Below are positions 10,787-46,654 of a stretch of 64,000 nucleotides of DNA, piece after piece. Positions within the stretch are counted from its first letter, which is position 1. Every line of letters begins with the position of its first letter. The notes under the pieces were generated by a model. The model did no database searches. It saw only the letters and a program-made list of their open reading frames with translations, and was not told the origin of the DNA. This stretch comes from Micromonospora sp. (GTDB lineage Bacteria; Actinomycetota; Actinomycetes; Mycobacteriales; Micromonosporaceae). Location: contig DATCMA010000056.1 of NCBI GenBank assembly GCA_036563645.1, forward strand, positions 9,898 to 73,897. Reading direction: 5' to 3'. A program made the translations under genes and the position numbers.

Positions 10787-10824
10787 GAGCGCGGAAGGTG
10801 GGTCGTGCCGCTCACCTTCCGCGC
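10787..10824 (+). terminator. hairpin after the sugar ABC operon
   Basis: gagcgcggaaggtg / caccttccgcgc, about a 12-bp stem starting 16 nt after the stop. No T-tract. Confidence 0.4.
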
Positions 10825-11005
10825 CCGATCGCTCCCCTAGTCAGACGTCGTCCGGTCGAGGGGCGTGGCGGAACCCACCGGGCGGCGCGACGCCACGGGT
10901 CGACCATCCTCACCGGCGAGGAGGCCGGTCCGACCGCCACCGGGAGCTGAGGTCAGCCGGGGGCTGGGGTCAGCGAGGAGACACGAGAGAGACGAGAGCC
11001 ACATC

Positions 11006-11020
11006 GTGACGAAATTCACA
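11006..11020. promoter_or_regulatory. CRP/FNR-type inverted repeat GTGA-N6-TCACA
   Basis: cGTGAcgaaatTCACa read directly. Matches 9 of 10 positions of the generic TGTGA-N6-TCACA consensus. Confidence 0.25.
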
Positions 11021-11209
11021 TAGACGAGCCGCGTTGGATGACATCGTCTGTCATCATCGTCTACGAGGTGGGCTGCTCCCCTGGCCTGTGCCGCGCCGAA
11101 CCCCCCAGAAATGTTGTTTCATCGCGGTTTCGCGTGCCTGCCCCCGCCGGCCGTGGGCAGGCCGACAACCGGGGACGGCGGCACGGACCGGGCGCGGCGA
11201 CAGCGCCAT

Positions 11210-11246
11210 ATTGGGCAGGTCACGGTAGGAACATTGGGCGGGTCAC
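11210..11246 (+). promoter_or_regulatory. two 14-nt direct repeats ATTGGGC(A/G)GGTCAC, 23 bp start-to-start
   Basis: Copies at 11210-11223 and 11233-11246, 13 of 14 identical, about 70-110 nt upstream of ATG 11319. Confidence 0.3.
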
Positions 11247-11318
11247 TGGCATGAGCAGGTGAGATGAACAGATAGTTACCTGGAGCGACCTGTTGTCGAG
11301 CTGCGAGAGGTGGCCCTG

Positions 11319-11660
11319 ATGGACGAGCCGATACCCGACGAGAACGTGCCGCCGGACGTCACGGACATCATGCTCTGGCGCCTGGCTTCCCAGGTCGCCG
11401 AAAGCCACCGCCCTGACCCGAATGACCCGACGCGGTGCTCCAACCTGCGGTGCGCGCGCGAGACGTACCCGTGCGAGGCGGCACGCTCCGCGGAGTACGC
11501 GCTGCGCGCGAGTCGTGCTCGGCCCCAGGCGCCGGAGGCGGAACCCGCACCGGCTGGTGAAGCCCCGACGCCAATGGCGACGACCTCCCAGCCACGCGTC
11601 GACCTGGACGCGACCTCGGGGTGGTCCGCAGGACGGCGCCGCTCGCGCTCCGCGGCTTGA
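11319..11660 (+). CDS. hypothetical protein (113 aa, three Cys: CSNLRCARETYPC)
   Basis: ATG 11319 preceded by GAGAGGTGG. High GC3 through the first two thirds. No family recognised. Confidence 0.45.
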   Translation: MDEPIPDENVPPDVTDIMLWRLASQVAESHRPDPNDPTRCSNLRCARETYPCEAARSAEYALRASRARPQAPEAEPAPAGEAPTPMATTSQPRVDLDATSGWSAGRRRSRSAA

Positions 11661-12168
11661 TCGCTCGACCGCCGGTCCTCAGCTCACTCGTCGTCTCACT
11701 CGTCCCGGAACGCCAGATCCTGTCGACGACAGGCGGTCGGTGTCCGCCGAGCGCGGCGTGCTCCAGGGCGGGCCGCCCAGATCGTGCCACCGGACCGACC
11801 GGTGCCCGTGCACCGCGGTCCTCGCGACCACTGCTTCCGCTGCGGCGTCCAGCGGCTCGTCGACAACGACGTCACCACGTCGGCGGTGAGCCCAGCGCGC
11901 GGAGCTGGGTGATCGCCGCGTCGACGGCCGCGCGGGCGGTATCGCGCGCGTGGTCGTATGACTGGTGGGCCCGCTCGGTCACCGCTCCTGCCTGCGACGC
12001 CCGCGCCACACCAGGGCCAGGCTGATCTCGACAACGACCGATCCTCCGTCGGCGCCTGTCCAGGCTGCCCTAGGCCATCGGGTTGTCGGCCGGACAAGAC
12101 AAGCCTGGACAGCGATCGGTCAGGCGCGATTGTGGGCGTGCCCGCTCCGATGACTCCCGAGGCCAGGG

Positions 12169-12921
12169 TCACTGGCCGACCAACACCGGTGGTGCGACCC
12201 GCGCGCGATGGGCTTCCGCGCACCGTTGGGAGAGGGCGTATCGAACGAGGACGACGTCCTCGATCTGCCGAACCTCCAGCACGGTGGCGCGATTTCCCGG
12301 ATGCCAGGGGAACCGCCCATCGCCGACGAATCGGGGCGCGCGCCGGTCGCCGATGAAGAATGGGGCGACCACCAGGTGCAGCTCGTCGGCGAGCCCGGCG
12401 GTGAGGAACTGCGAATGCATCGACTCACCGCCCTCCACCAGCAGCCGGCGCACACCGCGGAGCGCAAGATCAGCGAGGACGCGCTCCGGGCGTACCGGAT
12501 CCCCACCGTCGACGACGGTCGCCACGCCGCCGAGCGCTTCGCGTGTCTTGGCCCAGACCCGCGTGGCGCAGTACACCACCTTCTCCACGTTGCCCTGGGT
12601 GAAGAACCGAGAACTCGGGTCGAGGTCGCCGCTGGCGGTGACGGTGACCTTCATCGGCGACGGCGACAATCCTCGCCGCACCCGCCACGCGCGCCGGGAC
12701 GGCGAGCGCACGAGCAAGCGGGGATTGTCGGCTCGGACGGTGCCGGCGCCGACCAGGATCGCGTCGCACTCGGCGCGCACCGCGTCGACCCGATCCAAGT
12801 CGGCCGCGTTGGACAGCAACAGCCGCTGACCGCTGGCGTCGTCGATATACCCGTCGATCGACATCGCGCAGCTCAGCAGGACGTACGGACGCTCAACCAT
12901 GGGCCACGGACGGTCAGTCAT
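12169..12921 (-). CDS. RibD C-terminal-type reductase / dihydrofolate-reductase-family protein (no deaminase domain)
   Basis: ..YVLLSCAMSIDGYIDDASG..DRVDAVRAECDAILVGAGTVRADNPRL..RRLLVEGGESMHSQFLTAGLADELHLVVAPFFIG.. Start 12921 overlaps the ribA stop. Alternative ATG at 12900. Confidence 0.8.
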   Translation of the reverse strand: MTDRPWPMVERPYVLLSCAMSIDGYIDDASGQRLLLSNAADLDRVDAVRAECDAILVGAGTVRADNPRLLVRSPSRRAWRVRRGLSPSPMKVTVTASGDLDPSSRFFTQGNVEKVVYCATRVWAKTREALGGVATVVDGGDPVRPERVLADLALRGVRRLLVEGGESMHSQFLTAGLADELHLVVAPFFIGDRRAPRFVGDGRFPWHPGNRATVLEVRQIEDVVLVRYALSQRCAEAHRARVAPPVLVGQ

Positions 12922-13570
12922 GGACCAGCGGCATCTCGAGGGCGTGTCCTCCGCGGCTGGCCTTCGCGGCCAGGTAGTTCGCGTTGGACGGGGACAGGTG
13001 GACCCCGGTCGACACGCGCTCGGTGATCGTCACACCGAGCCGATCCAGCTGCGCAACCTTGTCGGGGTTGTTCGTCAACAAGGCCACTCGCCGAATGCCC
13101 AAGGCGAACAGCATCTGCGCGGCCACCGTGTAGTCCCGTTCGTCCTCCCGATGACCCAACGCGACATTCGCCTCGTAGGTGTCGAGCCCGGCGTCCTGTA
13201 GCGCGTAGGCGTCGAGCTTGGCGTACAGTCCCACCCCGCGCCCCTCCTGCCGGAGGTACAGCACGAGGCCACCGACGGCGGCGATGCGTTCGACCGCCTC
13301 GCGTAACTGGGGACCACAGTCGCAGCGCTCACTGCCGAACACGTCACCGGTCAGACACTCGCTGTGCGGGCGGACCAGGGGGACGTTGGGAGACACACTC
13401 CGCCCGTGCCACGGCTGCGCCCACTCCCCGAGCCCGATGGCGAGGTGTTCCCGACCGTCGACCAGCCCGTGGAACGAGAACACCCGAGCCATCGTGGTGT
13501 AGCCGTCGGGGAAGCGCAGCGGCACCGCCACCTGCGTCCGGACTCTTGCTCCACCCAGTGCTTCGTCCAT
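12914..13570 (-). CDS. ribA: stand-alone GTP cyclohydrolase II
   Basis: ..VRPHSECLTGDVFGSERCDCGPQL..GLVLYLRQEGRGVGLYAKLDAYALQDAGLDTYEANVALGHREDERDY..LLTNNPDKV.. Start ATG 13570 after AAGGGAG. No DHBP-synthase (RibB) domain is fused. Confidence 0.9.
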   Translation of the reverse strand: MDEALGGARVRTQVAVPLRFPDGYTTMARVFSFHGLVDGREHLAIGLGEWAQPWHGRSVSPNVPLVRPHSECLTGDVFGSERCDCGPQLREAVERIAAVGGLVLYLRQEGRGVGLYAKLDAYALQDAGLDTYEANVALGHREDERDYTVAAQMLFALGIRRVALLTNNPDKVAQLDRLGVTITERVSTGVHLSPSNANYLAAKASRGGHALEMPLVHD

Positions 13571-13581
13571 TGGACTCCCTT

Positions 13582-14547
13582 TCAGACACCGCCGGACGCG
13601 CCGGCGGCTACCGGCACCCGGATCCGGCGGGCGATCACGAAGGCAGCGCCGGGAAGGCTCGCCACCATCACCAGCGCCCCGTAGACCATGGCGGTGGAGA
13701 GCCCTTGGGCCGCGGAGAGCCCCGCCTCCGCGAACGCCCACGCGGCCACGCCCTCCCGCGGGCCGAAGCCAGCCAGGTTCATCGGCACCGCCATGGCGAG
13801 CAACGCCAGCAGCGTCAACGGCACCAAATGGGACAGTGGCGCGGTCGCGCCGGCCGTCCGCGCGGCGATCAGGAATGTCGCCACGTGCCCGGCGACCGCC
13901 ACCGTCGACGCCAGCAGGACGCCGAGCCACGTGCCTCGGGCGAGCAGACCGTGGCGGAGATCGGCACCGGCGGCGCGTACCGCCCGCGCCCACCGTGACG
14001 CCGGGCCGCGCCGCACCGCCCACGCCAGCACGGCGACGCCGACTCCCCCAGCGAGCGCCAGCGCGGCGGCCACCGGGAGGTACGGGCGCACCGGCGACGG
14101 CAACACGCTGAGGACGACGACCGCGATCGCGATCTGCACGACCTGGCCCGCGGTCCGCTCCCACACCACGGCGCGAATGCCCCGACCGAGATCACCAACG
14201 TCGCGGCCGTGCCGTACCGCCCGCTCCACGTCGCCCACGACGCCACCGGGGAGCGTCGCGTTGAGGAACACGGCCCGATAGCAGTGGGCGATTGCCCGGC
14301 CCAACGGCAGCCGGACGCCGAGGCCGCCCGCCACCAGCTGCCAGCGCCAGGCGCAGCACACCGTCGTGACCAGACCGATCGCCACGGCGGCCCCCACCGC
14401 CCAGCCGTCGATTGCGCGCAGTCCATCCAGGAACGGTCCGGTGCCCAACCGCCACAGCAACACCGCGAGGATCGCGGCCCCGCCCACAGTGCGCACCACT
14501 GCCCACCACCGGCGCGCCGGAGCTGGGCTACCCGTGCTGGTGTGCAC
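13582..14547 (-). CDS. flippase-like / lysyl-phosphatidylglycerol-synthase-TM-type (UPF0104) membrane protein
   Basis: Polytopic protein with ..WRWQLV..LPLGRAIAHCYRAVFLNATLPGGVVGDVERA.. and ..NLAGFGPREGVAAWAF.. Start GTG 14547 after GAAGGGAG. Upstream track sequence is Arg-rich shadow. Confidence 0.8.
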   Translation of the reverse strand: MHTSTGSPAPARRWWAVVRTVGGAAILAVLLWRLGTGPFLDGLRAIDGWAVGAAVAIGLVTTVCCAWRWQLVAGGLGVRLPLGRAIAHCYRAVFLNATLPGGVVGDVERAVRHGRDVGDLGRGIRAVVWERTAGQVVQIAIAVVVLSVLPSPVRPYLPVAAALALAGGVGVAVLAWAVRRGPASRWARAVRAAGADLRHGLLARGTWLGVLLASTVAVAGHVATFLIAARTAGATAPLSHLVPLTLLALLAMAVPMNLAGFGPREGVAAWAFAEAGLSAAQGLSTAMVYGALVMVASLPGAAFVIARRIRVPVAAGASGGV

Positions 14548-14606
14548 GCGACTCCCTTCTCTATCGAGCGTCCTGGTTGCCTCTACGCACCCCAGGGCGC
14601 GCTGGT

Positions 14607-15416
14607 TCAGCTCACGCCAGCGAGCAGGTCGCTGTGGTGGACGACCACGCGTAGCCGGCCGGCGGCGGCGTCGGCCAGCCGCTGGCGGGCGTACGCCTGG
14701 GTTCGCTCCACCAGCTCCGGCCGCTGTTCGCAGGCGGCGCCCCACCACCCGGTGAACCACTCCGCGATCAGCTCCGCTTGCTGCGGCCCGAGCCGCCACG
14801 GGCTCGGCCGCACCACGACGTCCACACCGCGGCGGCCAAACGCCGCCACGCAGGCATCGACGGCGTCCGGTCCCAACAGGGCTCGTCCGTCGACGGTCCG
14901 GCGCTGGTGCGCGTTGAACGCCTCCGCGATCTCCTGGTCGAGGGGATCGGCCGGGGTGAGCTCAACCCGACCGACCACCGAGATCATGAAGAGCGCCGAG
15001 CAACCGGCCGCGACACACGCCTCGACGATCCGCTCGAGTTCGTCGGCGGTGAGCATGTCGAGCAACGCGGAGGCGGTGACGACCGCGGCGCCGGAGAGGT
15101 CGGCGGCGGTCAGGCGGGTGATGTCGCGGAGCCGGGTCTCCACGGTGACCGGTGCGCCGTTCGCGGCCCGGTCCCCCAGGCGCACGCGCGCCAGAAGGGA
15201 CGGATCCCGGTCGTACAGGATCCAGTGCTGGGGCCCGGGCAGTTGCGGGGCGAGCCACCGGCCCAGGGAGCCGGTGCCGGAGCCGAGGTCGTGGATGACC
15301 ACCGGGGACGCGCCGGCCACGCGCCGCCGCAGGAGCGCCACGAGCTCAGTCGATCGCGCCGCGGCGTCCGCCGGTTCCCGCAGGCGCAGCCAATCGGGGA
15401 AAGACAGCGTCGTCAT
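14607..15416 (-). CDS. class I SAM-dependent methyltransferase
   Basis: Motif I VVIHDLGSGTGSLGRWL. ATGA overlap with the GT4 stop. Confidence 0.8.
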   Translation of the reverse strand: MTTLSFPDWLRLREPADAAARSTELVALLRRRVAGASPVVIHDLGSGTGSLGRWLAPQLPGPQHWILYDRDPSLLARVRLGDRAANGAPVTVETRLRDITRLTAADLSGAAVVTASALLDMLTADELERIVEACVAAGCSALFMISVVGRVELTPADPLDQEIAEAFNAHQRRTVDGRALLGPDAVDACVAAFGRRGVDVVVRPSPWRLGPQQAELIAEWFTGWWGAACEQRPELVERTQAYARQRLADAAAGRLRVVVHHSDLLAGVS

Positions 15417-16525
15417 ACCGCCACCGCCTCCGTGAGGACCTGTGCGAGTCGGGCTGTGGTGACGTCCCAGCCGGTGAGCTGGGCGCGACGGGCGCGCGCC
15501 GCGCGCCGGAGCCGCTCGCGCAGCGCGGGATCCCCCAGCCACCGGCGCAGCGCGTCGGCGAGGGCCCCGGGGTCGTCCCGCGCCACCAGCACCCCGGGCC
15601 GGTCGCCGTCCGGCGTCTCGCCCATCGCCTCCGGCACACCGCCGACCGCGGTCGCCACCACCGGGATCCCGCGGGCCAGCGCTTCGGTGACCACCATTCC
15701 GTACGTCTCGGCGCGCGAGGCGAGCACGAGCAGGTCCGCCGCCGCGTACGCTGCGGCGAGGTCCGCCCCGGTCCGTGGGCCCACCAGCGGCATGCGGTCG
15801 GTGAGTCCGTCGGCGTCGAGCTGGGCGCGCAGCGCCGCGACGAACCGGGGATCTCGGGTTACCGACCCCACGCAGACGCAGCGCCACGGCAGCTCCGCGA
15901 CGCGCGCCAGCGCCTGGGCGAGGAGGTCGTGGCCTTTTCCGGGGGTGACGGCCGCGACGCACAGCAGCCGCGACCCGCTCGGCGATCCGGGTGTCAGCGG
16001 CGCGGGATCCACCCCGGGGTGCACGACGTGGACCCGGTCGACGGGGAGGGGATAGCGCGCCAGCAGGGTTTGCCGGGTCCACTCGCTGGTCGTGACGATG
16101 CGGGTCGCCGCGGCCAGCGCCCTCCCTTCGCCGTCGTCGAGCAGGGGCATGTGGATGAGTGGCACGAGGCGCAGCCGGTGGGCCTGCGCGCAAAGCGCGT
16201 CCGGCGCCGCGGATCCCACCAGACCATCGATGAGGACCAGGGCGCCGTCGGGCAGCGCGGCGAGCTGGCGCGCGAGCCTCGTCTGCTCCTGCGCGGTGGG
16301 CTGGGGCCACGCCCCGGGCACCGCGTGCTCGTGGACGGCCCAGCCCGTCGCGGCCAAACCGTCACAGACGCGCCGGTCGTAGGTGTTGCCGCCGCTGGGG
16401 GTCGCGGGATCGTCGATGTCGTTGGGCAGGATGACGTGCACGTCCCGCGGCCCACGGCCGCAGCGCGGCGGCGGCCCGGTGCCGTGGAGGCGGGTCTCAC
16501 CCGAGGCGCGCATCGTCGCCCTCAC
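15413..16525 (-). CDS. glycosyltransferase family 4 (GT-B, GT1/GT4 type)
   Basis: ..[35 protein letters not shown].. (EX7E region). GTGA overlap with the PTPS-like stop. Alternative starts at 16513 and 16441. Confidence 0.85.
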
Positions 16526-16926
16526 AGGGATCGCTCGTAGCTGGCCCAGGCGATGTGCGACTCGCGCAAGGTGACCGTGATGCCGGTCAGGCCACGCGCC
16601 CCGTCGCCGAGGGCGCCGGCGTGGACCCGCTCAGCCAGCCGGTCGGCGATGTGCCGCGCGAGCACCTCGGTGGTGGTGTTCACCCCCGCGAAGGCGGGAT
16701 CGTCGTCGAGGTTGCGGTAGTTGAGGTCACTGAGGATCTCGCGCAAGACCGCGCTGGCGCGTCCAATGTCGACGACCACACCGTCGGCGTCGAGGTCCGG
16801 GCGGCGAAACGTGGCGTCGACGACGTACGTGGCGCCGTGGAGTCGCTGCGCGGGGCCGAAGACCTCGCCACGAAAACTGTGCGCGATCATCATGTGATCG
16901 CGGACGGTCACGCTGAACACGATCAC
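16522..16926 (-). CDS. 6-pyruvoyl-tetrahydropterin synthase/QueD-family (T-fold) homologue, non-canonical active site
   Basis: ..[52 protein letters not shown].. The canonical Cys-x4-HGH is replaced by [13 protein letters not shown] overlap with the upstream dehydrogenase. Confidence 0.85.
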
Positions 16927-17984
16927 TCTCCGTCGTAGGTGATGAGGTGGCACAGCGCGGGGAGCTCCCCGGCTGCTAGGCGGGGCATGACGTCGGGGAG
17001 GTCGGCGAATCGGGACCTTCCGGTGAGCAGGGAGTCGAAGGCGGGATCGGCGAGGAGCTCCACGGCCAACGCCAGCCGGTCGGCGGCGCTCCGCCGGCCC
17101 TGGCGGGCGGGCGAGAGCGTCCCCACTTGGCTGCTGCGGATGGCGAGCCGCCGCGAGTGGAACACCCCGCCGAGCGCGAGGCTGATCGGGCGATCGCCGT
17201 ACCAGCTCAGCTCGACGACCGTGCCGTCGGGCACGAGGAGCTCGAGGGCCCGCTGTAGCCCGGCGGCGGTGGCGCTGGTGTGGATGACGAGGTCACGGCC
17301 GCCGGAGGCCTCCTCGGGCAGGGCGAACGCCACACCGAGGGCCGCGGCCACCGCGGCCCGCGCGGGATTGACGTCGACCAGCTCGACGTGGACCCCGGGG
17401 AAGCGAGCCAGCAGAGCCGCCACGCAGCACCCCACCATGCCGGCCCCGATGACGGTGACTCGGTCGCCGATGAGGGGCGCGGCGTCCCACAGGGCGTTGA
17501 CCGCGGTCTCCACGGTCCCGGTCAGCACCGCTCGTGCGGCGGGGACCCCGTCGGGAACGGGGACGACGGCCTCCACCGGCACCACGTACGCGGTCTGGTG
17601 TGGATAGAGGCAGAAGACCGTGCGGCCCCGCAGCTCCGGGGGCCCGACCTCCACCAGCCCCACGTTGAGGTAGCCGTACTTGACCGGCCCGGGGAAGTCG
17701 CCCTCTTGGAATGGCGCCCGCATCGCCGCGTACTGGTCCGTGGGAACCCGACCGGTGAAGACCAGCGTCTCGGTGCCGCGACTGACGCCGGAGTAGCGGG
17801 TGCGCACGAGCACCTCGCCAGGGCCGGGATCCCGCAGCGGCACGGATCGGATCTCGCCGTGCCCGGGGCTCCGGATCCAAAACGCGCGGGCCTCGCTGGC
17901 CATCGAGTGTGTCGTCACCGTCATCTCCCCACCGAACCAAACGGCCGCGGCGCCCGTGTCCCCAGGCAGCGGCTCGTCGATCAC
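16923..17984 (-). CDS. MDR-superfamily zinc-type alcohol dehydrogenase-like protein
   Basis: ..[48 protein letters not shown].. (Rossmann GxGxxG). Start uncertain: 17984, 17924 or 17903. Confidence 0.8.
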
Positions 17985-18000
17985 TAGTCACGGAGGCACG

Positions 18001-18780
18001 GTGCGCAGAGTTCAATCCGGTCCCACGATCGGGATGACCATCCAATTTGTCCTGTTGGCGGCCCTAGACCAGATCGTTGGGCTCAGCCTGGTCGGCTGGA
18101 TGGCGGGTGCCGGCTACGCCGCGGTGGTCTGCGCGACGCTCACCCGCGGCTTGCGCCGCGCCGGCGCCGCCGGCCTCGGCCCGGCTGACCGGGTGACCCT
18201 CGCCAGGGCGATCCTCGTCGGCGGCGTGACCGCGCTGACGGTGGACTCAGTCACCCGTCCGGCCCCCGTCGGTCTCCTGGTCGCGCTCACGGCGGTGGCT
18301 CTGGCGCTCGACGCCGTCGACGGATACGTCGCGCGCCGCACGGGGACGGCGAGCCCGCTCGGCGCCCGGTTCGATATGGAGATCGACGCTTTCCTCCTCC
18401 TCGTGCTCTCCGTCCTCGTCGCCCCATGGGCCGGTGGCTGGGTCGTCGCCATCGGCGCGATGCGCTACGCCTTCGTCGCCGCTGGCTGGCTCCTCCCGTG
18501 GCTGCGCGCGCCCCTGCCGCCGCGCTATTGGCGAAAGGTGGTGGCCGCGACACAGGGCGTGGTGTTGGCGGTCGCGGTGTCGGACCTCCTCCCCCGCCCC
18601 ATCACGATCAGCGCGCTGGTGGTGGCGCTCGCAATGCTCGTCGAATCCTTCGGGCACGACGTGGCATGGCTGTGGCGGCACCGCCCCACCCGGACCGCCG
18701 TCCCCGCGCCGGCGGGCGGCCCCACCGAGACCGCGCTGCCCGAGGCGGCGCCTCAGTTGGCGGCTCCGCTGTCAGTGTGA
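18001..18780 (+). CDS. CDP-alcohol phosphatidyltransferase family protein
   Basis: Complete signature DG-x2-AR-x8-G-x3-D-x3-D seen in ALDAVDGYVARRTGTASPLGARFDMEIDAFLL. Multi-TM. GTG 18001 follows GGAGG. Alternative ATG at 18034. Confidence 0.85.
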   Translation: MRRVQSGPTIGMTIQFVLLAALDQIVGLSLVGWMAGAGYAAVVCATLTRGLRRAGAAGLGPADRVTLARAILVGGVTALTVDSVTRPAPVGLLVALTAVALALDAVDGYVARRTGTASPLGARFDMEIDAFLLLVLSVLVAPWAGGWVVAIGAMRYAFVAAGWLLPWLRAPLPPRYWRKVVAATQGVVLAVAVSDLLPRPITISALVVALAMLVESFGHDVAWLWRHRPTRTAVPAPAGGPTETALPEAAPQLAAPLSV

Positions 18781-18889
18781 GCCGGCGAGTTAGAGCGGTC
18801 ACGTCGGTCGCGGCCGGCGCGTGGCGCGGACCGCGACCGGTCCGATGACATGACTCCGCGCTCAGGTAACCGAGAAAGGGCGTATCACC

Positions 18890-20620
18890 GTGGTGCTCTC
18901 CACTCGGCCGCGGCGACCAACTGACCTCGGCCCGGCCACAGGGGACGACCGGACGACGGGGCGTCCCCGCCATCCGTCCACCAGCGACAAATCCTCCGTA
19001 GAGGATCTCCCGACGCGGCGGCGCGGGAGAAGCAAGCTCGCCACGGCACTGGCCGCAGGGCTGGTCGTGGCCGCCGCCCTCACCCCCCATCAGCTCGACC
19101 AGCTCACCCCCGCCGCGATGCTGCGGATTCCGTTGGAAGGCCTCCTCGCCGTCGCCGTCCTGCTCGCGCTCCCGCCGCGGGCGCGGCGGGTGGCGGCGGT
19201 CGCGCTCGGCGCGCTCCTCAGTCTCCTGGTCGTCGTGAAGCTCGCCGACCTCGGCTTCGCCACGGCGCTCGGGCGGCCGTTCCACGTGCTCTTTGACTGG
19301 GTCCTCCTCGACGACGCCGTGGGCTTCGTCGCCACCTCCTTCGGCCGCACCGCCGCGATCGTCGCGGTCGGGGTCACCGTGCTCCTCCTGCTCACCCTGC
19401 CCGTGGCGCTCATCGCCGCGGTGCTGCGGCTGTCCCGCGTGGTCGCCCAGCGCCGCGCCGCGGCGACCAGAGCGGTGGCGGCGCTGACGGCCCTGTGGGT
19501 CGTCTGCGCGGCGTTCGACGTCCGCATCGTCCCGGCGGTGCCGATCGCCGACACCCACGCCACCGACCTCGCCGCCGCGCACCTGCGTCAGGTGCCCGAG
19601 GGTTTGCGGGACCGGGACCGGTTCGCCACCGAACTCGTCAACGATCCGTTCCGATACACCCCGGGCGAGGAGCTCCTCACCGCGCTGCGCGGCAAGGACG
19701 TCCTGTTCGTCTTCATCGAAAGCTACGGACGGAACGCGGTCGAGGCTCCCGAGTTCGCCCCCGCGATCGGCGCTGTCCTCGACGAGGGGTATCGCCGGCT
19801 CCAGGCCGCCGGATACACCGCCCGAAGCGCCTTCCTCACCTCGTCGACCATCGGAGGGGCGAGCTGGCTCGCCCACGACACGCTGTTCTCCGGGCTGTGG
19901 ATCGACAGCGAGCAGCGCCACCGCGCGCTCCTCGCCAGCGACCGGCTGACACTACACAAGGCGTTTCGGCGCGCGAACTGGGAGACCGTCGGGGTGATGC
20001 CCGCGGTCACGCACGACTGGCCCGAGGGCAAGTTCTTCGGCTACCAGCGGTTCTACGACAGCCGCCGGCTCGGCTACCGCGGGCCGACCTTCGCCTACGC
20101 CCCCGTCCCCGACCAGTTCACGCTCGCCGCGTTCCACCGCCTGGAGCGCGCCCGGCGCGACCGCGGCCCCCTGATGGCCGAGATCGACCTCGTCTCCAGC
20201 CACTCGCCGTGGACCGTGCTTCCCCGCATGCTGGAGTGGTCGGAGGTCGGGGACGGTGCGGTGTACCACCAGTCCCGGGTCGTCACTCAGCGGGACAAGC
20301 GGGGGGAGACCGCGCGGCAGGCGCGTGACGCCTACCGCCAGACCATCGAGTACTCCCTCCGCTGTCTGATCTCCTATGTGGAGACGTACGGGGACGACAA
20401 CCTCGTGGTCGTGTTCCTCGGCGACCACCAACCCTCGCCGCTCATCACCGGACCGAACCCCAGCCGGGACGTGCCGATCGCGATCCTGGCGCGGGACCCG
20501 GCGGTGATTGACCGGATCGCCGACTGGGGGTGGCAGGACGGGCTGCGGCCCGGGCCCCACGCGCCGGTGTGGCGCATGGACGCCTTCCGCGACCGGTTCC
20601 TCACCGCCTTCAGCTCCTAG
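18890..20620 (+). CDS. membrane-anchored alkaline-phosphatase-superfamily (sulfatase / LtaS-EptA-like) protein
   Basis: N-terminal multi-TM region, then an extracytoplasmic domain ..VLFVFIESYGR..TSSTIGGASWLAHDTLFSG..VVFLGDHQP.. Assigned by architecture and motif recall. Confidence 0.65.
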   Translation: MVLSTRPRRPTDLGPATGDDRTTGRPRHPSTSDKSSVEDLPTRRRGRSKLATALAAGLVVAAALTPHQLDQLTPAAMLRIPLEGLLAVAVLLALPPRARRVAAVALGALLSLLVVVKLADLGFATALGRPFHVLFDWVLLDDAVGFVATSFGRTAAIVAVGVTVLLLLTLPVALIAAVLRLSRVVAQRRAAATRAVAALTALWVVCAAFDVRIVPAVPIADTHATDLAAAHLRQVPEGLRDRDRFATELVNDPFRYTPGEELLTALRGKDVLFVFIESYGRNAVEAPEFAPAIGAVLDEGYRRLQAAGYTARSAFLTSSTIGGASWLAHDTLFSGLWIDSEQRHRALLASDRLTLHKAFRRANWETVGVMPAVTHDWPEGKFFGYQRFYDSRRLGYRGPTFAYAPVPDQFTLAAFHRLERARRDRGPLMAEIDLVSSHSPWTVLPRMLEWSEVGDGAVYHQSRVVTQRDKRGETARQARDAYRQTIEYSLRCLISYVETYGDDNLVVVFLGDHQPSPLITGPNPSRDVPIAILARDPAVIDRIADWGWQDGLRPGPHAPVWRMDAFRDRFLTAFSS

Positions 20621-20676: not shown

Positions 20677-21462
20677 TCAGCGGCCGACGAGGGTCGTCCC
20701 GATGACGGCGAGCAGCGCCACGCTGTTGACGATCTCGATGAGCCCTATCTGGACCGGGGCGAGGCGGCGGCGCGGCAGCAACCAGGCGCGCAGCGCGGTC
20801 CAGGCGAAGAACGCCGCTGCCGCGGGCCCGAGCGGGAGGCTCGCGACGAGCGCCGCCGCGTGGTAGCCGAGCGACCAGCGGTGGAACGTCCGGTTGTCGC
20901 GCTCGCGGATCATCGTCTTGACGAAGAAGGCGGTGCCCGCGAAGTACAGCGCGCAGGCGGCGAACGCCCCGGCCCCGGCCCACGGGTCCGCGCCGGCCAC
21001 GGTGACCACGACCGCAACCATGAGGCAGCTCTGCGCCACCGCGGCGAGGTCGTTGAGGAGGGTCCGTTCCCGGCGCCGCCAGGCGCTCACCGCGTTGATC
21101 CCGAGGAGGACGGCGAACACGGGGGCGTACCACAGCACGGCCGGGCGCAGCGCCAGCACCAGCAGCGCCGCGGGCAGCGTCACCGCCCCGTAGACGAGGA
21201 GTTGGGCGCGGAACCGACGGGGCCGACGGCTCTTGAGCGCCTGAAAGACGTAGTAGGACCACAGGTAGCCGCCGATCCACGCGACGAGCAGCGGCGCGTG
21301 CAGCCAGCGCGCCCCGACGACGAGCAGCCCGGCGAGGTACGGCACGAGCAGCATCGCCCACGCGCCGTGCTGCGGGGGAATGAACTGTCGGCGGCGTGCC
21401 CCGGCCGAGCTCCGCCGCGCCGGCGCCGCCTGCTCCACCCTCGAGGGGGTTTCGGTGCTCAT
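20677..21462 (-). CDS. YwiC-like membrane protein
   Basis: ..FIPPQHGAWAMLLVPYLAGL.. opening and polytopic body. ATGA overlap with the upstream regulator stop. Confidence 0.65.
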   Translation of the reverse strand: MSTETPSRVEQAAPARRSSAGARRRQFIPPQHGAWAMLLVPYLAGLLVVGARWLHAPLLVAWIGGYLWSYYVFQALKSRRPRRFRAQLLVYGAVTLPAALLVLALRPAVLWYAPVFAVLLGINAVSAWRRRERTLLNDLAAVAQSCLMVAVVVTVAGADPWAGAGAFAACALYFAGTAFFVKTMIRERDNRTFHRWSLGYHAAALVASLPLGPAAAAFFAWTALRAWLLPRRRLAPVQIGLIEIVNSVALLAVIGTTLVGR

Positions 21463-22193
21463 TCCTGCGCGCCTCCTCGCATCGCAACGGGATCGCCGAC
21501 CGGATCGGTGGGCGGCGTCAGTCGGACGATGCACGCGGTCGACGCGCCGAACGGGGTGAGCGTCACCGTCGGAGCCGCCCCACCCGAGGTGCCCACGGCA
21601 CCCCGAATGATTCCTAAGTGGATTCCGCAGATCACGTCCGCGCTCGCGTCGACGAGGTCCCGGAATGGACAGTTCCGCAGGTGAATCTCGACGGGCTCCG
21701 CGCCCTGGCGGCGGGTGACGGTGGGGTCGAACCCGAGCTGGTTCACCACGGTGACGACCCGCTCCCCCGGGCTGCCCGCGTCGAGCCCTGCCGCGAGGCG
21801 CCGCCCCCAGCCGCGCCCCGCCGCGATGCCGGCGCGCCACGGGTCGTCGGCGGTGGCCGCGAGGTACTCCGCCAGCGCCATCGCCATCTCGCGATAAGGG
21901 CCGACCGCTGGATCGACCCCGGCGCGATACCGCCAAGCCGGACGTCCCGGAACCCCAGTGGGAACGCGGTCGCGCCGCAGCAGCCCGGCGGCGGTGAGCT
22001 GGTCGAGGTGCTCCCGCACCGTGCTCAGGCGGCGGCCCACGCCCTCGGCGACCTCCGCGGCGGTCACACCCTCCGGCGCGGCGCGCACGAACCGCAGGAT
22101 CGCTACCCGGATCGGGGAGGCCAAGGCGCGATGCCGGGACGGATCGACCCCTATGGCCGAAGGCCCGGCCCTACCGTTTTCCACGAACAGCAA
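21459..22193 (-). CDS. winged-helix (ArsR-like) transcriptional regulator with C-terminal extension
   Basis: ..HRALASPIRVAILRFVRAAPEGVTAAEVAEGVGRRLSTVREHLDQLTAAGLLRR.. TTG/GTG start uncertain. Confidence 0.7.
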   Translation of the reverse strand: MLFVENGRAGPSAIGVDPSRHRALASPIRVAILRFVRAAPEGVTAAEVAEGVGRRLSTVREHLDQLTAAGLLRRDRVPTGVPGRPAWRYRAGVDPAVGPYREMAMALAEYLAATADDPWRAGIAAGRGWGRRLAAGLDAGSPGERVVTVVNQLGFDPTVTRRQGAEPVEIHLRNCPFRDLVDASADVICGIHLGIIRGAVGTSGGAAPTVTLTPFGASTACIVRLTPPTDPVGDPVAMRGGAQE

Positions 22194-40910: not shown

Positions 40911-42053
40911 CTACGTCCGGTGTCCCGTGTCGGTGTCGGCCTGCGCCGACACCGACACGGCCACCACTTGCCCCCAGTGGTCCGAGAGCCCGTGGCTGGG
41001 GACCATGCGGTACTCGTGAACCCGCACGGGACCAGCGGTGAACGACCAATCCAGTCTCCACAGTGGATGGCTAGCCGGCCAGGAGGCGAGGTAGAGCTTC
41101 CCACTGGCGGGCAAGGCGTCTCGGAGGCGTGCGCCGAACTCGCGCAGCTCCCCCATCGCCGCGGTGGCGTTGAAATCGCCGGAGACCACCGTCGGTGCGG
41201 GGTTGCGAGCCAAGTCGGCGCGCAACGCGCGGTACAGGGCTTGTCGACGGTCCTCCTGAGATCGCATGAACTGGTAGAAGTCGGCCCGCCGCGGATCCAT
41301 CGTGATGTCCAGCTGCACCGGAACGTGCACGTTGTACACCGACAGCACCTGCCCACCGAGGTCGAGATCGGTCCGCAGGGCCTTGTAGCGGTAGTAGTCG
41401 GGGAAGTCGGTATCCGCGGGCGGACCGCCGACCGCCGGATCGGACAGGTAGGGCAGGTTGTCCACCGGGAGGCTGCGCACGACGGGGAACCGGGACATGG
41501 TGAGCAGCTCGCCGATGGCGACGACGTGGAAGTCGGGGAAGCGGCGGCGCAGCTCCTCCCGGTGGTCGACCGGTACCGGCCGGTGCCGGGCGAGGTCCCA
41601 CCCGACGTGCTCTTGCAGCAGGTAGACGTCCGCCCGCTGCTCGGCGAGGAACCGGTAGAAGCGCTCCAGATCGTCGCCGTCCGCCCAGTACTCGGTGTTC
41701 CAGGAGAAGATCCGGATGGCCCCGGGTGGGGCGGCGGTGGCCGCCCCACCCGACAGTGCCGCGAGGTTCAACCCCGACAGGTGGGCCCCGACCACCGCGC
41801 AGCCGAGCGCCGCGGCGGCGACACGGCCGCGCACCGGCCGGGCGAGCGGGGCGAGCGCCGCGAGGAGCGCCGGCACCGCCAGGAACACCAGCGGCGGTAC
41901 CAACTCCATCGGGCGCCACCACCAGTAGCGGCCGGTCAGCAGGAGGAACAGCGCCAGGGACACCGTCCACCCGGCGGCGAGGCCGACGAGGATCCGGGTA
42001 CGCACCGGCCAGCGCGCCCGACGTTCCCTAGTGGAGTGTGCCGTACCGCTCAT
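40911..42053 (-). CDS. membrane-anchored endonuclease/exonuclease/phosphatase (EEP) family protein
   Basis: N-terminal TM segments, then ..IRIFSWNTEYW..VYLLQEH.. ..GDFNAT.. ..LSDHWG.. ATGA overlap with the GT2 stop. Confidence 0.8.
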   Translation of the reverse strand: MSGTAHSTRERRARWPVRTRILVGLAAGWTVSLALFLLLTGRYWWWRPMELVPPLVFLAVPALLAALAPLARPVRGRVAAAALGCAVVGAHLSGLNLAALSGGAATAAPPGAIRIFSWNTEYWADGDDLERFYRFLAEQRADVYLLQEHVGWDLARHRPVPVDHREELRRRFPDFHVVAIGELLTMSRFPVVRSLPVDNLPYLSDPAVGGPPADTDFPDYYRYKALRTDLDLGGQVLSVYNVHVPVQLDITMDPRRADFYQFMRSQEDRRQALYRALRADLARNPAPTVVSGDFNATAAMGELREFGARLRDALPASGKLYLASWPASHPLWRLDWSFTAGPVRVHEYRMVPSHGLSDHWGQVVAVSVSAQADTDTGHRT

Positions 42054-43090
42054 GCCGCCACCCGCTCCACGGTTCGGCCGGCCAGCACCGGCCCCTCATA
42101 CGGCTCGTACAGCCGGCGGAAGCTCGGCGAGACCAGCCACTGCAGGGCACCCACCGCGGCACCGGCGGCGATCGCCACATTGGTGAGGAAGGCGAAGCCG
42201 GTGAACAGCGCCAGGAAGGCCGGTCCCTTCTTCCGCAGGACGTACCGGTACATCGCGGGATCACCGGTCAACGACAGCCCGAACAGCGCCACGGGCAGCG
42301 CGATCCAGGCCGGGTGCAGTGCGACCAGGGGTGTTGTGAGGAGGGCCGCGAGCGCCGCGGCCGCCGCCGACGAGCGGGTGCCGGTCTCAAACCCCTTGGC
42401 GAAGCGGCGTCGCTGAGCGAACAGCGGTACGCGCAGCCGAGCCCGCCGGAACAGCTTGCGCAGCAAGGGACCGAGTCGGTCGTCGTCATCGTGTCGCCCC
42501 CGCACCGCCGCGGTGACCATGATCGGGTAGCGGGCGGACATCCGCTCGCCGTAGTCCACCTCCTCGGTCTGCCTCAGCCTCGGGTTGAACGGCCCGACCG
42601 TGTCGAAGACGTGCCGGGGAATGGCGGTCAACGAGGAGAACAAGAAGCTGACCTCGCCGAGGGAGTCCATCCGCCAGCAGTACGCCTGAAGCACCCGGCA
42701 CTCCTCCACGACGCTGTCGCGGTAGAGCGGCTCATCCTCGTAGATGCCACACACCGCCCCGTACTCCGGGTGAGCGCGGAGCTGCTCGACCGCCTTCTCC
42801 ACCGCGTCCGGGTTGAGCGCCACGTCGGAGTCGACGAAGAACAAGATCTCCCCGCGGGCGGCCGCGGCGCCGATGTTGCGCGCCACCGCCACACCACTGT
42901 TCCGCGGTGTCTGCAGCACGCGCACATTGCGCTGTCGCGCGATCTCCACGGAGTTGTCGGTGCTGTGGTCGTCGACGACGATGACCTCCAGCGGCTGGTA
43001 GGTCTGCGCGAGCGCGGCGTCGATGCACGCCCCGAGGGACGCGCCGTAGTTGTAGTTGGGGATGATCACTGAGACGAGCGGGTTGGTCAT
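42050..43090 (-). CDS. glycosyltransferase family 2 with C-terminal TM region
   Basis: VSVIIPNYNYGASLGACIDAALAQTYQPLEVIVVDDHSTDNS..FFVDSDV.. (DxD). RBS GGAAAGGA. Confidence 0.9.
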   Translation of the reverse strand: MTNPLVSVIIPNYNYGASLGACIDAALAQTYQPLEVIVVDDHSTDNSVEIARQRNVRVLQTPRNSGVAVARNIGAAAARGEILFFVDSDVALNPDAVEKAVEQLRAHPEYGAVCGIYEDEPLYRDSVVEECRVLQAYCWRMDSLGEVSFLFSSLTAIPRHVFDTVGPFNPRLRQTEEVDYGERMSARYPIMVTAAVRGRHDDDDRLGPLLRKLFRRARLRVPLFAQRRRFAKGFETGTRSSAAAAALAALLTTPLVALHPAWIALPVALFGLSLTGDPAMYRYVLRKKGPAFLALFTGFAFLTNVAIAAGAAVGALQWLVSPSFRRLYEPYEGPVLAGRTVERVAA

Positions 43091-43123
43091 GGCGAAGTCC
43101 TTTCCACGGGGAACGCGAGCGCG

Positions 43124-44080
43124 TTAGCTGAGGATCAGCGGGAGCTGGGTGGCCGCGAGCGTGCCGGCCAGCAAGGCGCCCCACAGCAGGGAGTTGACCC
43201 GCAGCGCGGGGTCGTGCAGCAGCAGGCGCGTGGGGTCGCCGCCGTCCCCGTCGACGAGCAGCACCTGGAGGTAGCGGGCGAGCGCGAAGAGCGCGAAGGG
43301 CGCGGAGCCGAGCAGCGCCAGGGTCAGGTATGGGCCGTCGAGCCGCTGCTGGAGGTGGAGGAAGAAGGACACCACGGCGAGCACCGCGCACAGCACGGCC
43401 AGGTGGTCGAGGTACTGGGTGGAGTAGCCGCGCAGCGAGGGGCGGTGCGCGGCACCCCCGACGGTCACCTCGTGCCGCCGCTTGCCGAGCAGGAACAGCA
43501 GGCACACCGCCAACACGGCGATCAGCAACCACGGGCCGACCGGAGCGTCGACCACGAGGTAGCCCTGCACCACCCGGAGCACGAAGCCGAAGGCGACGAC
43601 GAACACGTCCACCAGGGGCAGGTGCTTGAGCCGGCGGCTGTAGACGAGGTTCAGCGCGAGGTAGACGGCGACCGGCCAGCACACCGCCGCCGGCACCGGG
43701 CCGAGGACCGCGGCCGCCACCAGCAGGGTGACCAGCAGCGCGGCGATGGCGGACGCCACCGGCACGCTGATGCGTCCCGCGGCGATCGGGCGGTGTCGTT
43801 TGGTGGGATGATTCCGGTCGCGGTGCCGGTCGGCGATGTCGTTGCAGACATAGACCACAGTCGAGGCAAGGGTGAAGAGCAGCACCGCCCACGCCAGTCG
43901 CACCGCGAGCCCCGGCGCGATGACCGAGACGTCGAGGAGCGCGAGCGGAACGACGAGCAGGTTCTTCACCCACTGGTGCGGTCGGATCAAGGCGATGACG
44001 TCCCGCCACACGCGGCGGGGCCGCGCCGGCGCGAGCGGCGGCGCGCTCGCCGCGACGCGGGTTTCCGCAGTGATAGTCAC
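43124..44080 (-). CDS. UbiA-family prenyl-phosphate phosphoribosyltransferase (decaprenyl-phosphate 5-phosphoribosyltransferase-like)
   Basis: ..IRPHQWVKNLLVVPLAL.. and ..YVCNDIADRHRDRNHPTKRHRPIAAGRIS.. (NDxxDxxxD plus KRxRP). GTG 44080 follows GGAGG at 6 nt. The track start 44137 is TTG. Confidence 0.85.
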   Translation of the reverse strand: MTITAETRVAASAPPLAPARPRRVWRDVIALIRPHQWVKNLLVVPLALLDVSVIAPGLAVRLAWAVLLFTLASTVVYVCNDIADRHRDRNHPTKRHRPIAAGRISVPVASAIAALLVTLLVAAAVLGPVPAAVCWPVAVYLALNLVYSRRLKHLPLVDVFVVAFGFVLRVVQGYLVVDAPVGPWLLIAVLAVCLLFLLGKRRHEVTVGGAAHRPSLRGYSTQYLDHLAVLCAVLAVVSFFLHLQQRLDGPYLTLALLGSAPFALFALARYLQVLLVDGDGGDPTRLLLHDPALRVNSLLWGALLAGTLAATQLPLILS

Positions 44081-44133
44081 GAGATACCTCCGGAAGGATG
44101 GGGTGCCGCACCGCGCACGCGGTGCGGCACCGG

Positions 44134-45171
44134 TCAAAACACGGCCTTGGCGAGGGCGAGCACGCCCTGTTTCCAGGGCTCACGGCTGGTCCGCCCCGTC
44201 GACGCGGCACTGGTCACCCGGTGGTGCCGCCACCACTCGTAGGTGCGCAGGATGGCGTCCCGGTTGGTGTAGCGCGGGGTCCACCCCAAGACGTCGCGTG
44301 CCTTGTCGGTGCTGACGTAGGAGTCAGCGAGCAGCTTGTGCAGCAGCCGTCCGTACACAGGGGACAGACGCAGCCGGCGGAGCAGGTCGAGGATGGCGAC
44401 CGCGGGCCGCGCGGGGATGGAGACGACGCGTTTGCCGTGCCCGGCCGCGTCGAGCACCGCTTGGAAGTCCTCGCGGAGGGTGCCGAACTCGGCGGCGGCG
44501 ATGTTGAACGTGTCGTTGGCCCGCTCGGCGGGAGCAGTGAGTACGACCTGCACCGCCGCGACCAGGTCCTCCACCGCGAGCCACTGGATACGGACGTCAC
44601 CGCGGCCGAGCACGGGGAAGTTGCGCCCTTCCTCCGCCCATTCGAAGAGCATCGCGAACAAGCCCATGCGCCCTGGGCCGAGGAACGTCTTCGGTCGCAG
44701 GATCGGCACGCACATCCCTCGGCCGCGGAATTCCTCCGCGATCTCCTCGGCGCTGGCCTTCGCGCGGCTGTACGGATCCACCGGCCGACGCGGGTAGTCC
44801 TCGGTGGTGGGCACCACGTCGGGCAGCCCGTACACGGCGGTGGAGGAGATGTGCACCAGCCGCGGTACGCCGCAGCGCGCGGCCGCCTGGAACACCGTGC
44901 GGGTGCCCCCGACGATGATCGACCGGATCTCGTCCTCGGGATAGCTCGGCAGGGCGGCCGCGGTGTGCACCACCGCGGCGCAGCCGGCGAGGGCGGATTG
45001 GACACGTCGCTCGTCGCGGACGTCGGTGCTGATGTACTCCACCCCGGCGATCGGCTCCTCCGGCGGGCGGATATCGAGGCTGCGCACCTGCCACCCGTCG
45101 GCGGCCAACGCGCGCACCAGGTTCCCGCCGAGCATGCCGCTGCCGCCGGTGACGGCTACCGTCCTCACCAC
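44134..45171 (-). CDS. NAD-dependent epimerase/dehydratase (extended SDR)
   Basis: VAVTGGSGMLGGNLV (GxxGxxG), catalytic YSRAK. GTG start overlaps the aminotransferase stop. Confidence 0.9.
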   Translation of the reverse strand: MVRTVAVTGGSGMLGGNLVRALAADGWQVRSLDIRPPEEPIAGVEYISTDVRDERRVQSALAGCAAVVHTAAALPSYPEDEIRSIIVGGTRTVFQAAARCGVPRLVHISSTAVYGLPDVVPTTEDYPRRPVDPYSRAKASAEEIAEEFRGRGMCVPILRPKTFLGPGRMGLFAMLFEWAEEGRNFPVLGRGDVRIQWLAVEDLVAAVQVVLTAPAERANDTFNIAAAEFGTLREDFQAVLDAAGHGKRVVSIPARPAVAILDLLRRLRLSPVYGRLLHKLLADSYVSTDKARDVLGWTPRYTNRDAILRTYEWWRHHRVTSAASTGRTSREPWKQGVLALAKAVF

Positions 45172-46593: not shown

Positions 46594-46654
46594 TGAGGTA
46601 CCTCCCTGACTGTCTGCTGTGGATTTCCGATTCGGACGTACGGTTGGGGGCGCG

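Follow-up and report, generated by a model that had tools for sequence, protein, structure and literature searches.

A widespread gene set around a PTPS-IV T-fold protein and its candidate route from GTP to the cell envelope in Micromonospora

The T-fold protein SCO6650 of Streptomyces coelicolor has a solved structure (PDB 3D7J, deposited as "Uncharacterized protein SCO6650") that is still without an assigned pathway in the literature we searched. The FGPAQ motif has been used to define a PTPS-IV subfamily within COG0720 (PMC5445326), and an association of PTPS-IV with the families of GTP cyclohydrolase II (GCH II; PF00925) and of the reductase RibD_C (PF01872) was published in 2017. A 2026 riboflavin review gives no pathway for the third S. 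coelicolor RibA homologue and says of its function that it is new and lies outside flavin synthesis. Here we analyze a nine-gene locus at positions 12169-20620 of a 64-kb stretch of high-GC Micromonospora DNA, referred to below as the window, whose PTPS-IV protein is 78% identical to SCO6650. We regard it as evenly balanced whether this locus is a complete copy of a widespread, uncharacterised pathway, one that would carry a GTP-derived head group from the riboflavin branch to the cell envelope. The literature searched yielded no product assignment for SCO6650, for SCO6655 or for the gene set, and no characterised pathway that matches it.

On sequence comparison, the locus is orthologous to the SCO6650 region. 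As in the window, the Streptomyces loci L044 and L079 contain genes for a medium-chain dehydrogenase/reductase (MDR), the PTPS-IV protein (PTPS), a family 4 glycosyltransferase (GT4), an S-adenosylmethionine (SAM)-dependent methyltransferase (MT) and a PF03706 membrane protein, arranged MDR-PTPS-GT4-MT-PF03706, with a CDP-alcohol phosphatidyltransferase gene divergent from them. They differ from the window at the GTP-processing end. The cluster-linked GCH II of L044 is non-Tyr at a position where the window protein has Tyr and is accompanied by a creatininase-family partner, and the RibD_C protein is short in Micromonospora but long, or not encoded nearby, in Streptomyces. An original prediction, made from the letters of the window alone, had stated that the S. 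coelicolor counterparts, SCO6650 and a GCH II paralogue, were studied without a pathway product being assigned. The statement on SCO6650 was right, whereas the window GCH II, with its Tyr, is not SCO6655-like.

Other described systems resemble parts of the locus. Cyanobacteria and Chlorobium make tetrahydrobiopterin glycosides with GTP cyclohydrolase I (GCH I), PTPS, sepiapterin reductase and a pteridine glycosyltransferase. The locus likewise pairs a GTP cyclohydrolase with a T-fold protein, a side-chain oxidoreductase and a glycosyltransferase, but it encodes GCH II rather than GCH I and an MDR rather than a short-chain dehydrogenase, adds an MT and membrane genes, and has a T-fold protein without the zinc site or catalytic residues. 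In the archaeal and fungal order of riboflavin synthesis, RibA or ArfA/ArfB is followed by a Rib7/ArfC-type reductase. The locus shares with this order a GCH II bearing the catalytic hallmarks and a RibD_C protein closest to reductases of 2,5-diamino-6-ribosylamino-4(3H)-pyrimidinone 5'-phosphate (DARPP), and the creatininase-family partner in sister clusters mirrors ArfB. Unlike that route, it has no deaminase and no 3,4-dihydroxy-2-butanone 4-phosphate (DHBP), lumazine or riboflavin synthase, and its later enzymes are unrelated to flavin synthesis.

The membrane genes recall the logic of PgsA or phosphatidylinositol-phosphate synthase, MprF and LtaS/EptA: a CDP-alcohol-family enzyme, a PF03706 flippase-type partner and a putative LtaS-type enzyme with a conserved Thr and metal site. 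Here, however, the transferase falls outside the characterised subfamilies, the PF03706 protein lacks the aminoacyl-phosphatidylglycerol synthase domain of MprF, LtaS and LtaP are very remote relatives of the LtaS-like protein, and GTP would supply the head group in place of glycerol, inositol or ethanolamine. For vicine and convicine in faba bean, a route has been proposed that starts from DARPP, the GCH II product, which is diverted from riboflavin and glucosylated (bioRxiv 10.1101/2020.02.26.966523). There, too, a GCH II product heads to a pyrimidine glycoside, but the proposed plant route proceeds by an N-glycosidase, deamination and glucosylation and includes no T-fold, MDR, MT or lipid step.

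A constant core with variable front and back ends

We anchored a scan on the PTPS gene with one genome per species, in which at least 579 of 600 pattern matches were confirmed. Neighbourhoods were compared at the best 80 PTPS loci, which span Micromonospora, Pseudonocardia, Amycolatopsis, Streptomyces, Actinomadura, Nocardiopsis and Thermoleophilia, and counts were restricted to the 52 actinobacterial loci whose 10-kb flanks were complete. The MDR gene was present at all 52, and most of these loci also held GT4 (50), PF03706 (50), MT (47), the CDP-alcohol transferase (43), RibD_C (41), GCH II (39) and the LtaS-like gene (30). All nine genes occurred together at 20 of the 52 loci. The transferase gene adjoined the MDR gene divergently, as in the window, at 31 of them. 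No further protein family recurred in more than 18 of 83 loci.

The association was also recovered in reverse. With the CDP-alcohol transferase subfamily as anchor, metagenome contigs yielded 32 loci of at least 6 kb, which contained MDR (31), PTPS (29), GT4 (29), MT (25), LtaS-like (22) and PF03706 (1) genes. Exact-sequence look-up placed transferase-anchored hosts in Chromatiaceae, Competibacteraceae, Steroidobacteraceae, Halovibrio, Vreelandella (Halomonas) and Salicola. Both a Thiodictyon plasmid and locus L083 carry MDR-PTPS-GT4-MT together with RibD_C, CDP-alcohol transferase and LtaS-like genes, the products being 30-63% identical to the window proteins. The PF03706 gene, found at 50 of 52 actinobacterial loci versus 1 of 32 proteobacterial-type loci, is essentially confined to Actinomycetota.

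The gene set is composed of a constant core (MDR, PTPS-IV, GT4 and MT), a variable GTP front end and a variable but dedicated membrane back end. Whether the genes travel together, the check proposed with the original prediction, has a positive answer in Actinomycetota and in Gammaproteobacteria, but as a claim about the entire set this needs narrowing: MDR-PTPS-GT4-MT is what is conserved, and the genes for the GTP front end and for the membrane proteins vary around it.

Gene fusions speak independently for joint action of the core proteins. In one bacterial locus (L084), PTPS-IV and GT4 form a single protein of 502 aa. The haptophyte Prymnesium parvum (P0398) and related metagenomic proteins (P0391-P0396, P0400-P0404) provide larger fusions of 1180-1440 aa, in which three PTPS-IV repeats with FG[PAT]AQ motifs are joined to an MT-like region and a C-terminal SxGTE-type MDR. 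The MT-like region is homologous to the cluster MT (hhalign probability 71%, E 3.8e-5; blastp E 6e-6). The fusion MDR is 32-36% identical to the cluster MDR over ~270 residues and is clearly nearer to it than to the ordinary zinc alcohol dehydrogenase of the window. On the evidence of these haptophyte proteins, the core is not confined to bacteria. A further protein, P0399, instead has two PTPS repeats fused to a calcineurin-like phosphoesterase domain. In the literature searched we found no description of the PTPS::GT4 and PTPSx3-MT-MDR fusions, of the pairing of the CDP-alcohol transferase with the LtaS-like gene, or of the Tyr/creatininase dichotomy presented below.

Additional genes accompany the cluster at some loci. 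A membrane acyltransferase of the Acyl_transf_3 family is inserted in the cluster at L028, L031, L040, L043, L045, L068, L074 and L082, which come from metagenome-assembled genomes of Solirubrobacterales and other uncultured Actinomycetota; this insertion would fit O-acylation of a product bound to the membrane or envelope. At Chromatiaceae-type loci, a cytochrome b561-type gene (PF01292) lies in or beside the cluster (L001 7303-7860, L083 5783-6337 and L094 ~8189). Two related loci that have the core alone carry a convergent PF01663 phosphodiesterase gene, of the alkaline-phosphatase superfamily, directly after MT (L084 13460-14647 and L087 13530-14756), where it occupies the position of the lipid genes at other loci.

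Proteins of the front end, core and membrane module

Pfam returned every one of the nine protein families named in the original prediction, that of the LtaS-like protein at a marginal score. The stand-alone GCH II (12914-13570, minus strand; PF00925, 183 bits) has an AAGGGAG ribosome-binding site at its start and scores well above the curated RibA cut-off (NCBIfam NF001591, 255 bits vs 148). Aligned with E. coli RibA (PDB 2BZ0), it keeps HSEC...RCDC, which contains the zinc ligands Cys54, Cys65 and Cys67, and its Tyr122 matches the E. coli switch residue Tyr105. Among cluster-linked GCH II proteins, the residue at this position is Tyr at 38 loci and non-Tyr at 16 (8 His, 6 Met, 1 Leu, 1 Ser). 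A creatininase-family neighbour (PF02633, 211 bits) is found at none of the 38 Tyr-type loci, the window included, and at 14 of the 16 non-Tyr loci (L011, L027, L032, L044, L046, L051, L054, L058-L060, L063, L066, L067 and L071). Non-Tyr proteins occur in Streptomyces L044, Amycolatopsis, Actinomadura and relatives (with Met, His or Leu). The non-Tyr loci of Amycolatopsis and Nocardiopsis gain an inositol-monophosphatase-family gene, and some non-Tyr loci have a longer RibD_C.

In archaea, the formylated GCH II product is deformylated by ArfB, a member of the creatininase family. The GCH II paralogue SCO6655, reportedly characterised enzymologically in 2006 by Spoonamore et al. in Biochemistry, is said to have Met120 and to stop at the formylated product. 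Because the creatininase-family neighbour tracks non-Tyr GCH II, and because ArfB belongs to the same family, we distinguish two front ends. Gene context suggests two routes to the same diaminopyrimidine nucleotide, taking one step in the window (Tyr) and two in Streptomyces and Amycolatopsis. From this context we infer that the creatininase-family neighbour is a deformylase. It was rejected as an ArfB equivalog, scoring 38 bits against a cut-off of 180 (NCBIfam NF033501), and its best match, MftE (134 bits), is also below cut-off.

The RibD_C reductase (12169-12921, minus strand; Pfam RibD_C, 145 bits) is covered by PF01872 over residues 12-219 of 250 and has no other domain, hence no deaminase half. 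It scores below the equivalog cut-off for DARPP reductase (TIGR01508, 127 bits vs 186). Its best PDB matches were nevertheless the 5xux family and 6p8c, the latter named 2,5-diamino-6-ribosylamino-pyrimidinone 5'-phosphate reductase by its depositors, and these ranked above eubacterial RibD/RibG.

Within the core, the PTPS (16522-16926, minus strand; Pfam PTPS, 89 bits) bears FGPAQ, the PTPS-IV signature, and its nearest homologue is a 99% identical protein from a Micromonospora metagenome-assembled genome. Relative to rat and human PTPS, HGH has become HGA, the catalytic Cys is missing, and the Asp-His pair is lost (NYRNLD in place of DHKNLD). The protein has none of the CxxxHGH, CxxxxxHGH or ExxHGH motifs that go with three zinc-binding His residues in catalytic PTPS/QueD proteins (PTPS-I/II/III), and it reaches 41 bits vs 89 with the QueD model. 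The glutamates of TTE and ES(H) are invariant. In T-fold enzymes these residues anchor a 2-amino-4-oxo-pyrimidine ring. The PTPS-IV protein probably serves to bind a 2-amino-4-oxo-pyrimidine or a pterin, or acts on one by non-canonical catalysis.

The MDR (16923-17924, minus strand) matches Pfam ADH_zinc_N. Its best NCBIfam model is BchC (TIGR01202, 55 bits vs a cut-off of 291), with the likeness confined to the N-terminal SxGTE region. The motif S48-R-G-T-E52 presumably stands at the Cys zinc-ligand position of classical zinc-dependent MDRs, and the protein is predicted to be zinc-free and BchC-like. GxGxxG and Asp184 indicate that it is probably NAD-dependent. In an AlphaFold model (pLDDT 87), the closest folds were polyol and threonine dehydrogenases (TM ~0.75, identity <=20%); the fold search returned this generic polyol/threonine-dehydrogenase fold and no substrate hint.

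For the GT4 (15413-16525, minus strand; Pfam Glyco_trans_1_4, 99 bits, and Glycos_transf_1, 95 bits), the best NCBIfam model was MshA at 94 bits, under its cut-off, and the Pfam GT4-conflict match was weaker than the generic GT4 models. The MT (14607-15416, minus strand; Pfam Methyltransf_25, 30 bits) has an N-terminal W-L-x-L-R-E-x-A-D motif, and W9, L10, R13, E14 and D17 are invariant in the homologue alignment, as is D43-L-G-x-G-x-G. It had no NCBIfam match, and a profile search of the PDB was uninformative; a single-sequence AlphaFold model (pLDDT 43) was discarded. The MT appears to represent an uncharacterised subfamily of class I SAM-dependent methyltransferases.

The membrane module begins with the CDP-alcohol phosphatidyltransferase (18001-18780, plus strand; Pfam CDP-OH_P_transf, 45 bits), which has multiple hydrophobic segments. 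The full signature motif that had been read from the sequence, D-x2-D-G-x2-A-R-x8-G-x3-D-x3-D, is indeed intact, and D104, D107, G108, A111, R112, G121, D125 and D129 are invariant in 14 homologues. The protein scores far below the cut-off of every equivalog model, and its profile matches PssA, CPT1/CEPT1 and PgsA over the signature motif alone. We interpret it as a putative uncharacterised subfamily dedicated to this gene set.

The PF03706 protein (13582-14547, minus strand; Pfam LPG_synthase_TM, 92 bits) belongs to the MprF flippase-domain family. It has 321 aa, ~7 hydrophobic segments, PF03706 as its sole domain and no synthase domain. It is not MprF, scoring 19 bits vs 600 with the MprF model and having no aminoacyl-phosphatidylglycerol synthase domain.

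The LtaS-like membrane protein (18890-20620, plus strand) falls marginally short of the Pfam Sulfatase cut-off (24.8 bits vs 25), and its sole PDB match is the Listeria lipoteichoic acid (LTA) primase LtaP (4UOP; E 1e-3 and 4e-3). In the alignment, its ESYG, the Thr of S-T-I-G-G (PTFGG in the homologue consensus), SSHSPW and GDH correspond to ESFQ, T, SSHMPF and GDH of 4UOP, that is, to the metal ligands and the Thr nucleophile region of the primase. Among 14 homologues, E277, H438, D512 and H513 are invariant and T320 is nearly so. The identity first given to this protein is supported by these aligned LtaS-type metal ligands and Thr nucleophile, though at marginal scores. Because an Arg-rich N-terminus precedes hydrophobic segments that fall between residues 76 and 220, we infer that the C-terminal alkaline-phosphatase-superfamily domain sits outside the membrane.

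A predicted route and competing explanations

From the observed families, catalytic residues, co-occurrence and fusions, we propose the following substrates, step order and lipid. A GTP-derived substrate is proposed because a dedicated GCH II is present at 39 of the 52 actinobacterial loci and because of the Tyr/creatininase dichotomy. In the first step, GCH II would turn GTP into DARPP, as judged from its family assignment, zinc ligands and Tyr switch. Second, the RibD_C protein, which is nearest to reductases acting before deamination, would reduce DARPP to its ribityl form; since the set has no deaminase, the 2-amino-4-oxo-pyrimidine ring would be retained.

The later steps are drawn from family chemistry, gene fusions and co-occurrence. 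In the third, PTPS-IV would bind the intermediate or possibly help to close the ring to a pterin, the zinc-free BchC-like MDR would oxidise a secondary alcohol, the MT would methylate the intermediate and the GT4 would add a sugar, with no order assigned among these core reactions. Fourth, the dedicated CDP-alcohol transferase would couple the core product to a phosphatidyl group, most simply from CDP-diacylglycerol because no cytidylyltransferase is encoded. The PF03706 protein would then carry the lipid to the outer leaflet as the fifth step. In the sixth, the LtaS-like enzyme would act as LtaS acts on phosphatidylglycerol and hand the phospho-head group to an acceptor outside the cytoplasm.

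More tentatively, and at a probability we place clearly below even, the locus may define a new class of membrane phospholipid or envelope phospho-modification in at least two bacterial phyla. Such a lipid or modification would bear an aminopyrimidine or pterin glycoside as head group, derived from GTP and drawn off riboflavin synthesis, and the soluble core of the pathway (PTPS-IV, MDR and MT) would be ancient enough to account for the haptophyte fusion. If a lipid or envelope modification is indeed the outcome, it would mean a new head-group chemistry and a new metabolic drain at the riboflavin branch point. If the proposed pathway is correct, SCO6650 and SCO6655 would gain the pathway product that none of the literature searched assigns to them. 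The analysis defines a conserved core, two alternatives for the GTP front end, a CDP-alcohol transferase dedicated to the set and cultured hosts open to genetic work (Streptomyces, Micromonospora, Vreelandella and Halovibrio).

Several observations weigh against an envelope destination or against individual steps of this scheme. The transferase profile matches users of CDP-diacylglycerol and users of CDP-alcohols equally, so that its donor cannot be read from sequence. The assignment of the LtaS-like protein comes with weak scores (Pfam 24.8 vs 25; PDB E ~1e-3). RibD_C is missing from many non-Tyr-type loci, and PTPS-IV, having none of the known catalytic residues, may be chemically inert. No lipid gene lies within 10 kb of the core at four of six MDR-anchored proteobacterial loci (L084, L085, L086 and L087), and 8 of the 52 actinobacterial loci have neither lipid gene within that distance. 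The haptophyte fusion proteins contain no lipid enzyme. Given the core-only loci and these fusions, the core product may be a soluble molecule.

These last observations favour a first alternative, namely that the core, GCH II and RibD_C make a pyrimidine or pterin glycoside that stays soluble and serves as a cofactor, pigment, redox buffer or light-related chromophore, and that the membrane genes have a separate, loosely coupled lipid function. The logic of such a route would parallel the soluble biopterin-glucoside pathway and vicine. One core locus moreover adjoins two photolyase/cryptochrome-family genes, which lie divergent from MDR-PTPS-GT4-MT on a metagenomic, gammaproteobacterial-type contig (L087 7006-9670). 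This adjacency occurs once among 167 loci, and we set it aside as general evidence for a light-related role. A loose coupling fits poorly with the transferase, whose subfamily accompanies the core at 31 of the 32 long loci, usually divergent from MDR, and at 43 of 52 actinobacterial loci, across two phyla and differing gene orders. The PF03706 gene, too, lies inside the operon, between MT and GCH II. We judge a purely soluble glycoside rather unlikely, and envelope attachment of the core product remains the reading we prefer.

A second alternative is a variant route to a flavin or deazaflavin cofactor (riboflavin, FO or F420), or salvage or repair of riboflavin intermediates, with PTPS-IV in a role like that in archaeal F420 synthesis. 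GCH II and a RibD-type reductase are the first enzymes of riboflavin and FO synthesis, and the reported enrichment of PF00925 and PF01872 near PTPS-IV genes agrees with such a role. A 2016 paper states, as unpublished work, that PTPS-IV functions in archaeal F420 synthesis (PMC5041015), which also counts against an envelope destination. However, no deaminase, no lumazine, riboflavin, DHBP or FO synthase and no CofC/D/E-type gene is present in the cluster, among its conserved neighbours or in the 64-kb window. The GT4, MT, CDP-alcohol transferase and LtaS-like enzymes play no part in flavin or F420 pathways, and the 2026 review calls the function of the S. coelicolor RibA paralogue unrelated to flavin synthesis. 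A riboflavin, folate, queuosine or biopterin route had already been discounted in the original prediction, and a scan of 39 open reading frames (ORFs) agreed, finding no companion genes for any of them in the cluster or the window (ribB, ribH, ribE, a deaminase and a second GCH II copy were all absent). We consider a flavin or F420 route improbable.

Still less probable, to a degree that we give it little weight, is a strain-level secondary-metabolite cluster for an exported toxoflavin-like or nucleoside-type antibiotic. The toxoflavin pathway also begins with GCH II and a RibD-type enzyme followed by an MT, and GT4 tailoring is common in antibiotic clusters. Yet hundreds of species-level genomes of Actinomycetes, Thermoleophilia and Gammaproteobacteria carry the syntenic block, and haptophytes have its core in fused form, a distribution that fits a housekeeping or physiological pathway, and the cluster lacks typical resistance, regulator and transporter genes. 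Chance adjacency, or a shared expression level alone with no common pathway, ranks last and is very unlikely: four-base overlaps, common in high-GC operons, do not by themselves prove shared function, but the two-way co-occurrence counts, the conservation between phyla despite rearranged gene order, and the fusions (PTPS::GT4 and PTPS-MT-MDR) all contradict it.

Layout of the locus and neighbouring sequence

The locus comprises a seven-gene operon on the minus strand and a divergent two-gene unit on the plus strand. Inspection of frame-specific GC content at third codon positions (GC3) and of start codons placed all nine ORFs at the positions first claimed for them, with GC3 values of 0.82-0.92, the bias of real high-GC genes. 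The operon had been described as chained by start/stop overlaps. All four overlaps that were named are present (GTGA for MDR/PTPS and for PTPS/GT4, ATGA for GT4/MT, and 8 nt for GCH II/RibD_C), but the remaining junctions are short gaps of 59 nt (MT/PF03706) and 11 nt (PF03706/GCH II). Four-base overlaps are ordinary in actinomycete operons. What goes beyond chance at this locus is not the overlaps but that different phyla have conserved the gene set.

Some starts merit comment. MDR, the first gene of the operon, starts at ATG 17924 with GGTGGGGAG upstream. The CDP-alcohol transferase starts at GTG 18001, not at 17800 as in the longest ORF, and its GGAGG ribosome-binding site is kept in 14 Micromonospora. 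The PTPS may instead start at GTG 16920, giving 132 aa as in most homologues and replacing the overlap with a 2-nt spacer. Likewise, RibD_C may start at ATG 12900, which would remove its overlap with GCH II.

The MDR and CDP-alcohol transferase genes diverge from an intergenic region of 76 nt (17925-18000), which presumably holds the promoters of both units. Across 14 Micromonospora loci, this region has conserved GGCCGTTCGGTTCGG and TTTATGATCGAC blocks (consensus forms, operon strand), from which the window copy deviates at a few positions. These blocks are possible promoter or operator elements. A promoter and terminator scan of 17925-18000 returned no sigma-70 consensus and no terminator, and an Rfam scan of the intergenic region gave no riboswitch or other match.

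Directly downstream of RibD_C, ~1.4 kb of the window (~10800-12168) has flat GC3 and no clear coding signal. ORFs in this stretch have no Pfam match, and it is not kept downstream of RibD_C in other Micromonospora. None of the genes flanking the locus (a sugar ABC transporter, the YwiC-like protein, an alcohol dehydrogenase, and a GAF kinase with its response regulator) is conserved together with the cluster, and they were left out of the gene set. The YwiC-like membrane protein (20677-21936, minus strand), encoded past the LtaS-like gene, carries in its longest ORF a long N-terminal extension rich in Arg and Gly, and its true start is probably internal; its gene was not conserved with the cluster at any other locus examined. 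Farther along, the window contains a second envelope-type run (40911-48629, minus strand) that encodes an Exo_endo_phos phosphatase, a family 2 glycosyltransferase (GT2), a UbiA-family prenyltransferase, an NAD-dependent epimerase/dehydratase, a class-III aminotransferase and a second GT2. This run looks like a polyprenyl-phosphate aminosugar or arabinose-type pathway.

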